Shown: piece by piece, positions 3,044 through 53,474 of the stretch
Layout of the letters: the number at the start of each line of letters is the position of its first letter
Position numbering within the stretch: the stretch's first letter is position 1
Assembly: GCA_964503975.1 (NCBI GenBank)
Contig: CAZDCI010000002.1
Span: forward strand, 1 to 58,932
Reading direction: 5' to 3'
Length of the DNA stretch: 58,932 nucleotides
Source of the DNA: Candidatus Woesearchaeota archaeon
GTDB taxonomy: Archaea > Nanobdellota > Nanobdellia > Pacearchaeales > GW2011-AR1
The notes under the pieces: generated by a model
The model's database searches: none
Told to the model about the DNA's origin: nothing
What the model saw: only the letters and a program-made list of their open reading frames with translations
Made by a program: the position numbers and the translations under genes

Positions 3044-3262
3044 AGAGAGTTCAGACCTAGCAATTAGTATGACCTGAAGCCTCTCCTGGGAAAAAAGAGG
3101 TGATATTATATCTAATTGTTTGTAGTATATAAATGTTTCGTTTGTGTTACTTCTGAAAAATGACAGTCAAGGATTAGTTTATAGTAGTACAACCCTACTC
3201 TAGAGTTCATACGGAATTAGGCACTACACTTATAGATGTTTTAGAGATAGTTAGGTACTACA

Positions 3263-3655
3263 CTAGCTCATCATTCCGGTAAAACCTTCTAAATATGTTC
3301 CACATTCATTACAATAAACATCGTAGCCCTCTCTTCCTGCTAAAGGAATATTATCTCTTATTGAAACATCGTCAACCACCCTTGGTTGTCCCAAGATAAG
3401 ATGTTCACAATGATGGCAAAGATAAGCAAACTTTATTCTCATTCCCTTACCCTCAGGTCTAAATCCATAAACAGTATAGTCTTCATTCTTTGATATAGCA
3501 ATTAATTCTTCATCAGACCCTAGTACTTCAGACATAACGTCTTTTAAATCTTCAAGAGGAATTACTTTTCCTTCTAGTCCGGGATGTTCCTCATACAACG
3601 GATACCAGCCAGCTCCTTCCATATCCCCTGGCGTAAGTTCTGGAATTAGATTCAT
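3263..3655 (-). CDS. Hypothetical zinc-ribbon protein
   Basis: CHHCEH...CNECG forms a four-ligand zinc-ribbon pattern. The ATG at 3655 has TATA-like CTTTTAATATAG about 25 nt upstream. The longer ORF starts with TTG. Confidence 0.6.
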   Translation of the reverse strand: MNLIPELTPGDMEGAGWYPLYEEHPGLEGKVIPLEDLKDVMSEVLGSDEELIAISKNEDYTVYGFRPEGKGMRIKFAYLCHHCEHLILGQPRVVDDVSIRDNIPLAGREGYDVYCNECGTYLEGFTGMMS

Positions 3656-6889: not shown

Positions 6890-8863
6890 TCACCGTCTTT
6901 TTAGACCGATAGTGACAATCAAAATAATTAGTATAATAATCCCAATAAATAAAACAATGGGAATCCAGACAGGAAATTTGGAAGGTTTTTGAATTTCAGG
7001 ATATTTTTTTTCATCAGGTTTAAATGGAATTGTTTTTTCTAACTTTTCAGTTTTTTCTGTTGATAAGACTATTGGCTCAAATATAATGGGAACGCTTTTA
7101 GTGACAAACACCGTCGCTGTTTTCTCATCTTTTTCTCCATCAAAAACAGCTTTTATGTTAAGAGTGTAGTTTCCTTCTTGAGTGCCGGAAGGAATTTCAA
7201 GAAAAAGTGTTTCTGAGTAAGTGTCATCATCACCAAATTCTTCAAGTTCAAAAACGTCACTCTTTGTGGAAACATCCAGTTTTTCTATCCCGGCAACTAT
7301 GTAAACATCTTCATCATTTTTTCCAACGTTCCAAACTTCTGCAAAAATGCTAATATTTTTCCCGGTGGTAATTGTTTCAGGATTTATCGAAAAATCTTTT
7401 ATCACCACACTGTGTTTTTCTCTTTCCAAGTCAATTTCTATTGCATCTTCAACACATTGAATTTTTTCATCACCGTCTTCATAAGCTTTTACAAAGACCA
7501 GATAACTACCATCCTCAAAATCATTTGGAACTTCCATAACAAACTCAAAAGTCTCATCTTCACCACCATCTATTTCTTTTTCATCTTCTAATTCTTCTAT
7601 AACTTCATCTTCATCAATATTGTATAAAGCAACTTCCATTACAATATCTTTATCATCATCAGCAGTGTTTTCCACATCAACCTCTATTTCAATTTCTTCC
7701 CCTGGTTTGAATTCGTCTCCATTGTCCGGATCTTGTATCGTTAAATATAAATCCCCAATTGTCCCTTCTTTACAAGTATCTAAGTCATCAAACAAGGTTA
7801 GATTGTATCTCTCTCCGCTTTCTCCAACCCTGAAAGAACTAAAATGTTCAACTTCAAACACAACCACCCCGTTCGTAGTAGGATTAGGAGTGTAATTTAG
7901 TATATTACAAAAATCACATTCTTTGTTTATTGAGAAAGGATTTACAGTAAACTCATTATTGTAGAATATTTTTGGAATTGTGTTGTAATTTAGTCCCGTA
8001 AGTGTTATTCTTGCAGGTTTACTTAACTGAGGATAAAAAGAAGAATTTATTGCTACAACTCCTTTGTTGATTTTTACTTTTTCATTTAAATTGGTAACGC
8101 CTGTTAAATTTAAATTTTCTAAAAATTCTATTTTTCCTTTTCCTGTTTTTTCCAAAATAACATTTGGAATATCTCCAAGTTCATTTAGATCAAGAGAATC
8201 AAGGTCAGTTGTATTCCCATCAAAACCACTTGTCTCGGGTCTTTCTATGATTAATATCCACTCTTCTGAAACAGTGAGAAATCCATCGGTTGCAAATATT
8301 TCTATCCTGTGAGTACCGCTATCATTGTTAAGAACCATATATTCAAAAGAACTTGAATTTATATCAGAAAAGCTTTTTGCTTCTTTCCCATCCAAGAACC
8401 ATGTATGATTTACAGAATCATTATATCCTGTGTATGTTGAAATGTTAAAATCTTGTACTCCCGTGTGGGAAACTCTTACCTCACTCTTAGAAGGGAAGAC
8501 TTCAGTAACATTTAGAGCTTTCTCTGTCAAGGTAGAGAGATTAAAAAAAACATCTTGTGGATAAACATAATCTATTTCTTGTTCTGCTTTATAATCTCCT
8601 ACAGTGATATTTATTGGTTGATTATAAAGTTCAGGATGTCCTTGGATAAACACCCCATATTCACTATTGCTGTCAACTGCAACATGCGCAAGTTCTGTTC
8701 CGTTCACTGAAAAGTTAACTAAAGTTCCTTCACTGGCAATTCTCCCGTCAATTTTTACATCACCTTTAAATAGAAGAAATTGAGGCACTTGGGGTATTGA
8801 GACAATCAAAGGTATACTTAATAACACACCTAATAAAACTATTGTGAGAATCTTTTTATCCAT
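6890..8863 (-). CDS. Secreted, C-terminally membrane-anchored acidic surface protein
   Basis: Signal peptide, many N-x-S/T sequons, Asp/Glu-rich Ig-like repeats, and a C-terminal TM helix with KRR tail. N-terminal module is shared with the two upstream genes. Confidence 0.75.
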   Translation of the reverse strand: MDKKILTIVLLGVLLSIPLIVSIPQVPQFLLFKGDVKIDGRIASEGTLVNFSVNGTELAHVAVDSNSEYGVFIQGHPELYNQPINITVGDYKAEQEIDYVYPQDVFFNLSTLTEKALNVTEVFPSKSEVRVSHTGVQDFNISTYTGYNDSVNHTWFLDGKEAKSFSDINSSSFEYMVLNNDSGTHRIEIFATDGFLTVSEEWILIIERPETSGFDGNTTDLDSLDLNELGDIPNVILEKTGKGKIEFLENLNLTGVTNLNEKVKINKGVVAINSSFYPQLSKPARITLTGLNYNTIPKIFYNNEFTVNPFSINKECDFCNILNYTPNPTTNGVVVFEVEHFSSFRVGESGERYNLTLFDDLDTCKEGTIGDLYLTIQDPDNGDEFKPGEEIEIEVDVENTADDDKDIVMEVALYNIDEDEVIEELEDEKEIDGGEDETFEFVMEVPNDFEDGSYLVFVKAYEDGDEKIQCVEDAIEIDLEREKHSVVIKDFSINPETITTGKNISIFAEVWNVGKNDEDVYIVAGIEKLDVSTKSDVFELEEFGDDDTYSETLFLEIPSGTQEGNYTLNIKAVFDGEKDEKTATVFVTKSVPIIFEPIVLSTEKTEKLEKTIPFKPDEKKYPEIQKPSKFPVWIPIVLFIGIIILIILIVTIGLKRR

Positions 8864-49154: not shown

Positions 49155-49347
49155 GCGTGTGTAGTTTAGTGGTAGAATATCTCGTTGCCAATATGGGGCA
49201 CCAAGGTTCCCCTTATAGTAACCCCCCCTTTGGAGAAGTTGAGGAACTGACAATCAAGGTTCTTTTACTAACTCCTTTTCAGGAGAAATGGTAAAAAGGG
49301 TGAAAAGTAAAAACGAGGTGGCCCGGGTTCGAGTCCCGGCACGCGCA
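49155..49347 (+). tRNA. tRNA-Gly (anticodon GCC) with ~122-nt intron at the canonical 37/38 site (about 49191-49312)
   Basis: Acceptor GCGTGTG/CACGCGC, anticodon stem TCTCG/CGAGG, anticodon GCC at 49187-49189, T arm CCGGG-TTCGAGT-CCCGG. Confidence 0.8.
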
Positions 49348-49444
49348 TCCACTTTCTACTTACAAGATTTTGATATTTAGTCTGTGTGGGCACGAATTTA
49401 TATATTTAGAATTTTGTGCCCACATGAATTTTAAACAACAATAC

Positions 49445-49822
49445 TTATTCTCCTAAAATTTCAGGAATAAATTTCCCTTTAGACATTATTGTTTTTCCAT
49501 CAACATAAACATCACAATCTCTCATAACCATATCACAATGAACATCGCTTTTCCATTCAGCTCCCGTGTCTTCTCCCAAAGGATCTCCGACTGCTATATG
49601 CACGCCGGGGAATTTTTCATCATGCAACATATTTCCAAGTAAACCTGTCAAACCAATATTAGTTCCTATTGCAGCCTCTCCAAACCGATTTGCGTTTTTA
49701 TCCGTATGGATATATTTCCAAAATTCATCCATAAGTTCTCTATTACTAGATTGAGCAGATACAATTCTTCCGTTTTCTGCTTTTATTATTAAAGGCGTTT
49801 CCTCAAGCAAGCCATACTCCAT
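49445..49822 (-). pseudogene. C-terminal fragment of an M29 (AmpS/PepS-type) aminopeptidase
   Basis: FGEAAIGTNIG ... HIAVGDP ... DVHCDMV matches the last third of M29 enzymes. No N-terminal two-thirds is found upstream in any frame. Confidence 0.55.
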
Positions 49823-50053
49823 AACTCGTGAACTAAAACAACTTTTTTAAAGATTATTAGGGTTTAAGGATTAATCCCGGATAGCACAATGATACTACAC
49901 TTGGTTCGAGCTCAAGGTCCTTTCGGACGTCCAAGTTCGATTTCTGGTCTAGGCGTTCTTCCGAAGTATGAATATGTATTCAAAACAAAAGATTTATAAA
50001 GTATTATGCATATGTATTCATAACTAAACAACGTAAAACAACAGAAATTTAAA

Positions 50054-50215
50054 ATGCCTAACAGAGACGGAATAGGTCCTGACGGAGAGGGTCCAAGAAC
50101 AGGAAGACAAATGGGAAACTGTGAAGATGCAAAACCTAATGAAGATGCATCCGACAGACCTCTAAGAAGAAGAGGCTTCGGCAGAAGACCAAGAAGATTC
50201 CGAAACAGAAAATAA
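50054..50215 (+). CDS. DUF5320-family small protein (53 aa)
   Basis: MPNRDGIGPDGEGPRTGRQMGNC... has the family pattern MPxxDGTGPxGxGPxTGR. Below the ORF-track cutoff. Sits immediately upstream of the DUF134 gene, the usual pairing. Confidence 0.65.
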   Translation: MPNRDGIGPDGEGPRTGRQMGNCEDAKPNEDASDRPLRRRGFGRRPRRFRNRK

Positions 50216-50220
50216 ACAAA

Positions 50221-50499
50221 ATGCCCCGCCCAAGAAAAAGAAGAAGAGTAAGAGGCCGGCCTAACTCTTCTTATTTCAAACCTGCAGGAATAAGAATACA
50301 TGAGCTAGATGAAATTGCCCTTTCTTTGGAAGAGTTTGAAGCAATAAGATTGATTGATTTAAACAAAGTTTCGCAAGAAGAAGCGGGGGAAAAGATGAGA
50401 GTTTCTCAGTCAACACTTTCAAGGATTCTAAATTCAGCACGTCAGAAACTAGCTGACGCCGTTGTTAAAGGAAAAGCTATAAGAATAAATAAAGAATAA
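50221..50499 (+). CDS. DUF134/UPF0251-family HTH protein
   Basis: MPRPRKRRRV ... FKPAG ... LSLEEFEAIRLIDL ... SQEEAGEKMRVSQSTLSRIL. Confidence 0.8.
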   Translation: MPRPRKRRRVRGRPNSSYFKPAGIRIHELDEIALSLEEFEAIRLIDLNKVSQEEAGEKMRVSQSTLSRILNSARQKLADAVVKGKAIRINKE

Positions 50500-50531
50500 A
50501 AATATAAAACATAATTCTTTCTTTTTTCCAA

Positions 50532-50668
50532 GCCCGGATGGCAGAGCGGTCTAATGCAACGGTCTCGAATGAGGGACACCTCTAGGTTTCCCTTACACTA
50601 ACCCTTCCTTTAGGGGAAGAGAACACCGTGCCCTTCGGGGCTCTCTGGTTCGAATCCAGATCCGGGCG
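50532..50668 (+). tRNA. tRNA-Ser (anticodon CGA) with ~54-nt intron at 37/38 (about 50570-50623) and a long variable arm
   Basis: Acceptor GCCCGGA/TCCGGGC, anticodon stem ACGGT/ACCGT, variable arm GCCCTTCGGGGC, T arm TCTGG-TTCGAAT-CCAGA, discriminator G. Confidence 0.8.
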
Positions 50669-52664: not shown

Positions 52665-53474
52665 TCATTTTCCATTATTAAGCCAATTTTCTACATAAGA
52701 AACTTTTTCTGGCTTTAATTTTATAGTATGAAACTTATCAAAAAATCTTTGGATATATTCTTTCCTATAAATTCTAAGATGGTAGGAGGTTTTATTTCCA
52801 TTCCAATGGAGTTTAGGTTTCTGAATTGAATACCTCGCTTCAATGTTAAAATGTCTCTTGAATAATTTTCTAATTACCTCTAAAATAGAGTAGTCTGTGT
52901 TACATATATCTAAACATATTTTTGGAGTTTTTCTTACTTTTTCTTTTATTATTTTAACACATCCTTCAGCATCAAAATATCCTTCAATAAATTGTAGGGC
53001 TTTCTCATGATTTTTCGTTTTAAATAAATTCTTCAGAGATTCTAAATCTTTTCTGGTATTTCTTAATAAAAGATACAATTCAATATTCCATGTTCTAAGA
53101 TGCCATACGTTTTTACTTTTTTCAGGATATCCCTTAATCCTTCTTTTCATACATACTAAAAGTTTATCTGAATATTTATCAATAAATTCTTTTTCTCCAC
53201 TTACAATTACCATGTATTTATTCTGTTTTTTCCAATGGTAGGCACAACCATCTCCTAACAAAGCACCCAAAACATAAAACAATTCCTTATTATATTCTAA
53301 TTTTCTTTTTCCAAAAGGAGAATTACCGTACTTATACCATCCATACATAGTATGATAGGGTAAACCAAACTTATCTTGAACTCTCTTTAATAATTCTGTT
53401 TGAGGCACATTATTTCTCTTCAATTTTAACATAAAATTATATGCATTCACCCTTGTTTCTACAGCAGAAATCAT
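52665..53474 (-). mobile_element. Free-standing double-motif LAGLIDADG homing-endonuclease gene
   Basis: Motifs LGALLGDGCAY and IEGYFDAEGCV. Its stop codon abuts the sod stop. It sits between the functional sod tail and a sod-tail remnant. Confidence 0.8.

Follow-up and report, generated by a model that had tools for sequence, protein, structure and literature searches.

We report here on a 58,932-nt stretch of DNA from a Candidatus Woesearchaeota archaeon (contig CAZDCI010000002.1 of assembly GCA_964503975.1; hereafter the window), in which two tRNA genes, tRNA-Gly(GCC) at 49155-49347 and tRNA-Ser(CGA) at 50532-50668, carry introns of 122 nt and 54 nt that begin with the same short repeat. 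ARAGORN run with its intron search places each intron between tRNA nucleotides 37 and 38, and in both genes the joined exons form a cloverleaf; an AA repeat allows the boundary of the tRNA-Ser intron to shift by 2 nt. The original prediction, made from the sequence alone, that these two genes contain long introns at the canonical site is borne out by this search and by a check of the splice-site boundaries. Neither gene was detected by ARAGORN at its default settings or by Rfam at the gathering score, and Rfam in E-value mode recovered only the tRNA-Ser gene (tRNA family, 40 bits, E=1.5e-6). The features of both genes are listed in Table 1, where, as throughout, L-numbers denote related loci obtained from genome and metagenome pattern scans.

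Table 1. Coordinates of the two intron-bearing tRNA genes of the window and of the repeat copies within them.
Feature	Position	Strand	Basis
tRNA-Gly(GCC)	5′ exon 49155-49190, intron 49191-49312, 3′ exon 49313-49347	+	ARAGORN -i; exons identical to L015 tRNA-Gly
tRNA-Gly intron, 122 nt, canonical 37/38 site	49191-49312	+	ARAGORN; splice-site boundary check
Full repeat core ATATGGGGCACCAAGGTTCCCCTTATAGTAACCCCCCCTTT in tRNA-Gly intron	49191-49231	+	nhmmer against non-window profile; fold
Degenerate 3′-half core CAAGGTTCTTTTACTAACTCCTTT in tRNA-Gly intron, followed by its own small hairpin CUCC/GGAG	49255-49279	+	Local alignment
tRNA-Ser(CGA)	5′ exon 50532-50569, intron 50570-50623, 3′ exon 50624-50668	+	ARAGORN -i; Rfam tRNA
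Full repeat core, GGGA/UCCC subtype, TGAGGGACACCTCTAGGTTTCCCTTACACTAACCCTTCCTTT, in tRNA-Ser intron	50570-50611	+	nhmmer; same subtype elsewhere
tRNA-Ser hairpin 2 (CUUCC 50604-08 with GGAAG 50615-19) and intron 3′ end	50604-50623	+	Folding; boundary check

A near-invariant repeat at the start of both introns

The sequence common to the two introns lies at the start of each and extends over ∼41 nt, with the consensus ATGAGGGGCACCAAGGTTCCCCTTACACTAACCCCTCCTTT. It had been predicted as a module of ∼35 nt preceded by GGGRCACC; both parts are real, but GGGRCACC forms the 5′ arm of a hairpin within the module, GGGRCACC...GGUUYCCC, whose strands covary (GGGG/CCCC in the Gly copy, GGGA/UCCC in the Ser copy), and the unit is therefore ∼41 nt long rather than 35. 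Across loci the core is sharply bounded and almost invariant, reading (A)TGAGGGGCACCAAGGTTCCCCTTACACTAACCCCTCCTTT over ∼39-41 nt, and this near-invariance over ∼41 nt holds among 69 distinct copies from outside the window. An nhmmer profile built exclusively from these 69 copies matches 49192-49231 (E=1.2e-12) and 50569-50612 (E=3e-11) and no other place in the window, which supports the predicted homology of the two modules, both of which the splice-site boundaries leave inside their introns.

The tRNA-Gly intron had further been thought to hold two copies of the module. The first is complete, but the second is a degenerate 3′ half of the core, which on its own was not picked up by nhmmer; its local alignment score of 24 was reached by none of 5000 shuffles (p<2e-4) and by 0.1% of genomic windows. 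One full copy plus one decayed half copy would account for the large size of this intron. The same layout, in which a full core is followed after ∼15-25 nt by a 3′ half core, also occurs in introns, leaders and coding sequences at L003, L005, L014, L031, L069 and L071. The Gly and Ser copies are not each other's closest relatives: the former belongs to the main subtype and the latter to a GGGA/UCCC, CCCUUCC subtype also seen in the tRNA-Ser(CGA) introns at L015, L051 and L077, from which it follows that the tRNA-Ser(CGA) intron has been inherited.

A C/D-box guide RNA, one of the functions originally suggested, was rejected for lack of any sensible box arrangement, the Gly intron having just UUGAGGA directly followed by CUGA in mid-intron and the Ser intron having no such motifs. 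The module matched no Rfam C/D family at E≤5, and no known RNA family in E-value mode.

Distribution among genomes and metagenomes

A scan of 185,579 species genomes (one per species) with an exact pattern returned 26 loci, every one of them in a metagenome-assembled genome (MAG) of Woesearchaeota, Pacearchaeota or Nanoarchaeota, where ∼3 matches would be expected by chance according to our own arithmetic. A metagenome scan added 76 further loci, ∼70 of which are true copies, and viral contigs gave no match to the pattern. Six low-scoring loci from two metagenomes (L028, L040, L053, L086, L087 and L090) contain an unrelated repeat, ..ATTGCGGACACCTTAGGTTGCCCTTAGAATAACCCC.., that fits the pattern by chance, and were excluded from all counts. 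Copies scoring at least 40 bits were entered in a context table, which after removal of duplicates comprises 87 unique copies. The repeat family is specific to the Woesearchaeales/Pacearchaeales branch of DPANN archaea. Recurrence in other introns and genomes had been set beforehand as a test of the original prediction, and the module was found in introns of 11 tRNA isoacceptors and at 26 genome and ∼70 metagenome loci. The literature on DPANN tRNA introns and repeats that we searched contained no published description of the core or of the peptides it encodes.

Three sets of related sequences were observed alongside the core family. Two paralogous intergenic loci (L001/L036/L039/L063/L085 and L010/L057/L075/L080) share a unit of ∼85 nt, composed of TGTAAGRCAC, the core and CCTTTGAGTTAGCTTGA..ATCAACYTCC, that is conserved in several metagenomes and may represent either a small RNA gene or an extended subfamily. 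At L007 (tRNA-Gly intron), L065 (tRNA-Lys intron) and L059 (∼750) the corresponding position at the 5′ splice site or in a tRNA leader is taken by a sister family (..GGGAACC..GGTTCCCCTAACAAGTCACCCCTCC..). At L068 (∼690-900, ∼170 nt) and L070 (∼3200-3250, ∼20 nt) a GC-rich segment with GGGCAC on both sides is nested in the loop of the repeat hairpin.

Geometry of the module-bearing introns

Splice-site geometry was compared in 18 distinct module-bearing introns, all of which lie at the 37/38 site of the anticodon loop (ARAGORN placed those of L014 and L060 two nucleotides off) and none of which lies at a non-canonical position. The isoacceptors concerned are Gly-GCC, Ser-CGA, Ser-GGA, Ser-GCT, Ser-TGA, Cys, Asn, Ile-GAT, Lys-TTT, Lys-CTT and Thr-GGT, and the 16 intron copies in the context table are all in the sense orientation. 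In 12 of the 18 introns tRNA nucleotides 32-35 form four of four pairs with intron nucleotides n-5 to n-2, leaving 3-nt bulges that contain both splice sites; 3-nt bulges around a 4-bp helix constitute the archaeal bulge-helix-bulge (BHB) geometry. The tRNA-Gly gene of the window conforms fully, UUGC at nucleotides 32-35 pairing 4/4 with GUAA at 49307-49310 to leave the bulges CAA and AAA, and its tRNA-Ser gene has a relaxed central helix in which CUCG and AGAG (50618-21) pair 3/4, tRNA-Ser(CGA) introns generally having 2-3 pairs. DPANN splicing endonucleases with an L3 loop accompany a larger number of disrupted tRNA genes (PMC5829648), which would make a relaxed substrate of the present kind plausible.

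The TGAGGGG that opens the module starts at intron nucleotides 1-5 in all 18 introns and at nucleotides 1-3 in 15 of them. No pairing corresponding to the BHB outer helix h′ was found between the two intron ends; a local hairpin (hairpin 1) begins instead at intron nucleotides 1-3, running from about intron nucleotide 1-2 to ∼49216 in the Gly intron and over 50570-50595 in the Ser intron. Given where TGAGGGG starts, hairpin 1 therefore abuts the 5′ bulge, at the place that helix h′ would occupy. Across 34 distinct variants its positions are 92% paired and three pairs show double changes, values that none of 500 shuffles reached, subject to the usual caveat that the sequences are related. In a second hairpin (hairpin 2) the conserved CCCCUCC tail pairs with a variable strand further downstream; this hairpin was seen in 13 of 14 intron copies as opposed to 19 of 64 other copies (p=6.5e-5).

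Copies outside introns

Roughly three in four unique copies are not intronic. The family is associated with tRNAs, 42 of 87 unique copies being situated inside or within 150 nt of a tRNA gene, compared with 4.7% of the bases in these loci (p=4e-32). Sense copies occur just upstream of tRNAs, where they follow a duplicated 5′ fragment of that same tRNA (its first ∼14 nt, usually 14-15 nt) with the junction ...GCTCA|TGAGGGG or ...GCATA|TGAGGGG, and the complete tRNA begins 41-146 nt downstream. This architecture of tRNA 5′ fragment, insert and complete tRNA is found in at least 14 loci. The short inserts hold no open reading frame (ORF), and in one case (L005, 4672-7385) an insert of 2.75 kb separates a 14-nt tRNA-Ser 5′ fragment and the repeat from the complete tRNA-Ser(GGA); it has three opposite-strand ORFs, of which one weakly matches DUF4325 (STAS-like) and none contains a recombinase domain. 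Some leaders contain arrays, namely four tandem 64-nt units of the repeat with ∼15 nt of upstream flank directly before tRNA-Thr(CGT) (L049, 9047-9280) and two tandem 96-nt units of flank and element before tRNA-Met (L022). Antisense copies are flush with tRNA position +1 at L017, L038, L043, L045, L078, L059 and L024; the last of these (3120-3620) is a 16S-23S spacer in which a tRNA-Ala on the strand opposite to the rRNA is accompanied by two inverted copies of the repeat, of which one directly abuts the 5′ end of the tRNA. More generally, outside introns the 5′ end of the element is flush with ends or loops of the tRNA, at position +1, nucleotide 14 (D-loop) or nucleotide 73.

In the archaeal RNase P RNA genes of L011 (7350-7674) and L029 (∼7378-7702) the repeat replaces the P3 hairpin. 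These genes match Rfam RF00373 with 78 bits (E=8.5e-22) and contain a 44-nt insert where the model has 13, and owing to this replacement they fall below the Rfam gathering score (78 versus 84 bits). The L029 gene also provides RNA evidence: in a groundwater metatranscriptome, the sole contig mapping to 11 kb of this locus is a 252-nt piece within the RNase P RNA gene, which is 100% identical, begins a few nucleotides before the predicted 5′ end of the gene and contains the module without a joint. The module alone is therefore not excised, and it needs the context of a tRNA splice site.

Copies in coding sequences are read in frame. The antisense strand translates to KGGVSVRGTLVPL in methyltransferases of the RsmB/NOL1, TRM5/TYW2 and MTS/HemK types, where the insert directly precedes motif IV (DKILVDAPCSG, FDVIVMPRP and WDVIIFNPPY, respectively), and the sense strand translates to EGHQGSPYTNPSF in four other proteins; by Pfam name, an RNase H C-terminus is among the proteins with an in-frame copy. 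Of the core's six reading frames three are free of stops, and every copy found within a gene uses one of these. None of the copies found splits a gene with in-frame stops, and on this ground the idea that the module acts in mRNAs as an RNA intron in its own right was rejected. At L052 and L089 the TGA of the element serves as the stop codon of a gene.

Signs of insertion

The RsmB/NOL1 insert is present in only 1 of 80 homologues from different species and, relative to the nearest relatives, adds exactly 13 codons, that is, a clean 39-nt core in the antisense orientation with no duplication and no intron tail. L015 is syntenic with the window (Val-Gly-Ser), and its tRNA-Gly, identical in the exons, contains a 47-nt intron whose 5′ hairpin is different and which lacks the module. 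Isoacceptors that carry module introns lack any intron in other MAGs. The 14-nt 5′ flank is directly repeated (with an identity of at least 13/14, within 130 nt) at 16-19 of 78 unique copies compared with 5 of 156 controls; the duplications are mostly 14-15 nt long, with outliers of 7, 19, 23 and 40 nt, and the one at L008 lies away from any tRNA. A degenerate reverse complement of the flank, which would point to fold-back, is not enriched overall and is enriched in tRNA leaders only, and the target-site logo has weak preferences for T at -7 and A at -1. Traits of MITEs (miniature inverted-repeat transposable elements) can be seen in the 39-41-nt core, the absence of an ORF within it and the several dispersed copies.

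Interpretation and alternative explanations

We consider it probable that the repeat is a small, non-autonomous mobile (selfish) DNA element of one DPANN lineage, strongly associated with tRNAs, and that both introns of the window are built around copies of it. Best supported is that the element either has a strong preference for tRNA genes or survives there with a strong bias. The suggestion that the module is a mobile intron core is supported in that it behaves as a mobile sequence, but too narrow in view of the copies that lie elsewhere. In a canonical intron, the element sits in sense with its 5′ end at intron nucleotides 1-3, so placing its 5′ hairpin (GGGGCACC/GGUUCCCC) beside the 3-nt bulge of the 5′ splice site, where the BHB outer helix h′ lies. 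The 3′ end of the intron supplies the tRNA-specific 4-nt strand that pairs with tRNA nucleotides 32-35, and the conserved CCCCUCC tail takes part in hairpin 2. On this view the entire element would be taken out along with the intron by the splicing endonuclease and ligase; a copy disposed of in this way would cost the host little, which would make tRNA introns a safe haven, and the 5′ hairpin would have been turned into a part of the splice-site structure. Outside introns the element appears to persist only where it is tolerated, in spacers and leaders, in an RNase P RNA hairpin at the periphery and in ORFs at permissive protein loops.

A number of observations weigh against this interpretation. 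Most copies have no flanking duplication, the clean RsmB insertion included, so that uniform target-site duplication is ruled out and no single transposition chemistry fits all copies. The terminal inverted repeats (TGAGGGG / CCCCTCC) are just 6-8 nt long and imperfect, folding energies are ordinary (z about -1.5 to 0) and copy number is low, with at most four loci per MAG under the strict pattern. All-versus-all clustering of the 686 ORFs of the loci, as distinct from a search of whole genomes, revealed no transposase, integrase, reverse transcriptase, Cas1 or other recurrent neighbour gene, and no autonomous parent element with matching ends. Some shared sites clearly reflect vertical inheritance (the tRNA-Ser(CGA) intron, the RsmB insert and loci of the L001/L010 type). 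The sequencing runs that contain the window are DNA metagenomes only, and the splicing of both its introns is something that we infer.

The main rival to a mobile DNA element is a mobile BHB intron that moves through RNA. Such an element, the counterpart of the eukaryotic “introner” elements, would carry half a splice site, create or replace tRNA introns and spread by endonuclease excision, then by RtcB joining it to the ends of other RNAs or by splicing in reverse, followed by reverse transcription and recombination, with the copies in genes, leaders and spacers as by-products. Its conserved 5′ end coincides with the endonuclease cut (intron nucleotides 1-3) and its 3′ tail is variable, which is the appearance expected of excised intron RNA; likewise, the flush 5′ junctions fall at ends and loops of the tRNA as an RNA molecule, the presence of introns is polymorphic among isoacceptors and species, and the range of flank duplications, from 7 to 40 nt, is as in target-primed events. 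However, no reverse transcriptase was found near any copy, no module-bearing intron occupies a non-canonical position, the RsmB insertion lacks an intron tail, the module alone stays in RNase P RNA and the fold-back signature is confined to tRNA leaders, and we therefore regard the RNA route as rather unlikely. We are just as doubtful of a wider form of archaeal “introner”, a ∼40-nt mobile element with a BHB outer helix that would make or remodel endonuclease-spliced introns when it inserts into or beside a tRNA gene, moved either by the splicing machinery (excised intron RNA, RtcB ligation and reverse transcription) or by an undescribed tRNA-targeting integrase generating 14-15-nt duplications.

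It is also conceivable, with a much smaller probability, that the repeat is a functional RNA or protein-binding signal under selection, such as a site for pre-tRNA processing or a chaperone or a stable intron-derived small RNA, that is vertically inherited and not mobile. Very high conservation across divergent MAGs, covariation of the hairpin, the fixed place at the 5′ splice site and orthologous retention in the tRNA-Ser(CGA) introns of several genomes would all be explained in this way. A purely functional, vertically inherited signal nevertheless does not fit the range of contexts, given that copies are found on either strand with respect to the adjacent genes, within unrelated proteins in frame, in the P3 of RNase P RNA and in intergenic DNA, that they are absent from most homologous sites, that some form tandem arrays or have flanking duplications and that no Rfam family matches. 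As for a chance likeness between two AT-rich, low-complexity introns, a short degenerate pattern of 19 nt with three mismatches is indeed not enriched in the window (3 matches versus 2.9 expected); the significance of the module derives instead from its full length and its recurrence elsewhere, and chance is excluded by the matches to an independent profile (E=1e-12 and 3e-11) and by ∼100 further copies in one archaeal lineage.

Comparison with known systems

Near-identical introns in different tRNA genes of Thermoproteales imply intron gain and spread (Fujishima et al. 2010, as summarised in the reviews PMC4090602 and PMC4033280). As far as these summaries go, the introns described here resemble the transposed introns of Thermoproteales in that homologous introns occupy different tRNA genes (here those of 11 isoacceptors) and depend on the BHB and its endonuclease, and the endonuclease of the host lineage is probably of relaxed specificity here too, judging from the DPANN L3-loop enzymes described in PMC5829648. 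They differ from the Thermoproteales introns of the same summaries in their exclusive use of the canonical 37/38 site with no spread to non-canonical tRNA positions, in the lack of any restriction of the repeat to introns, in that the same unit is common outside introns, proteins included, and in a sharply bounded core of ∼40 nt that is kept across many species, whereas the similarity there is found within one genome. In Caldiarchaeum subterraneum a tRNA gene has been disrupted by an integrating element, a recombinase-encoding insert of 1.8 kb (Sugahara et al. 2012, PMC3293823). The order of tRNA 5′ fragment, inserted DNA and complete tRNA is the same as in our leader loci, the 2.75-kb insert of L005 among them; unlike the Caldiarchaeum element, most inserts here measure 41-146 nt and lack an ORF, what is duplicated is the tRNA's first ∼14 nt and no recombinase was found.

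Rickettsia palindromic elements (RPEs) and other in-frame MITEs (reviewed in PMC10969869) provide a further parallel. Like RPEs, the repeat is short and palindromic, occurs in intergenic DNA, in RNA genes and in frame at permissive sites of unrelated housekeeping proteins, and resides in small, reduced genomes of hosts with a symbiotic lifestyle. At 39-41 nt it is shorter than RPEs (about 95-150 nt), it is archaeal and unrelated to them in sequence, and its strong association with tRNAs and introns is missing in RPEs. A genome of Pacearchaeales is reported to contain a gene of the RAYT type (REP-associated tyrosine transposase; bioRxiv 10.64898/2026.05.13.725050). In common with the repetitive extragenic palindromic (REP) sequences and REPINs mobilised by such Y1 transposases, the repeat is ∼35-40 nt long and forms an imperfect hairpin with a conserved 5′ flank and no transposase within; in contrast, REPs are extragenic and usually number hundreds per genome, and the intragenic copies seen here argue against a strictly extragenic repeat. 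Flank duplications of the kind seen here are not known to be a feature of REP/RAYT chemistry. Casposases are similar in the size of their duplication, 14-15 nt, and in their preference for the ends of tRNA genes, a resemblance that serves as a lead only. Unlike casposons, the repeat has no Cas1 gene near the copies found and no long terminal inverted repeats, is ∼200 times smaller and occurs in many copies without a duplication. The element thus mixes traits of Thermoproteales intron transposition, the Caldiarchaeum model, REP-sized hairpins and RPE-like in-frame DNA, and is a full member of none of these groups.

How archaeal tRNA introns are gained, and why disrupted tRNA genes abound in some lineages, is an old open question, on which the evidence to date has come mainly from the similarity of Thermoproteales introns and from the single Caldiarchaeum locus. 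Here, one recognisable element of 40 nt ties together tRNA introns, duplicated tRNA 5′ fragments, leader arrays, an expansion of RNase P RNA and peptide inserts in methyltransferases within one lineage. It offers a marker with which intron gain and loss can be dated and counted in hundreds of DPANN genomes, a defined substrate for probing the requirements of the DPANN splicing endonuclease and an instance of proteins in reduced archaeal genomes being shaped by selfish DNA. Were the “introner” interpretation true, it would represent a live example of the origin of archaeal tRNA introns and of split or fragmented tRNA genes. On a practical level, users should be aware that standard searches for tRNA and RNase P RNA miss or under-score genes that bear the element, which may add to the “missing” tRNAs of DPANN MAGs.

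Other features of the window

A degenerate, intronless tRNA-Ser(CGA)-like pseudogene with mismatches in the acceptor and D-stems lies at 49875-49955 (+), ∼580 nt upstream of the intron-containing tRNA-Ser(CGA), and is detected only with relaxed ARAGORN thresholds. Between the two tRNA genes, an ORF of 125 amino acids (49445-49822, -) matches a Peptidase_M29 aminopeptidase in its C-terminal quarter only (positions 281-390 of the 406 in the profile) and is probably a gene fragment. Further downstream, at 52665-53474 (-), a free-standing ORF of 269 amino acids is of the LAGLIDADG type (PF14528, E=2.8e-15) and lies outside any recognisable intron or intein. Directly downstream of tRNA-Gly, an inverted repeat at 49383-49425 (TGTGGGCAC...GTGCCCACA) may be a terminator hairpin, and its GGGCAC arm is similar to the GGGGCACC of the repeat.

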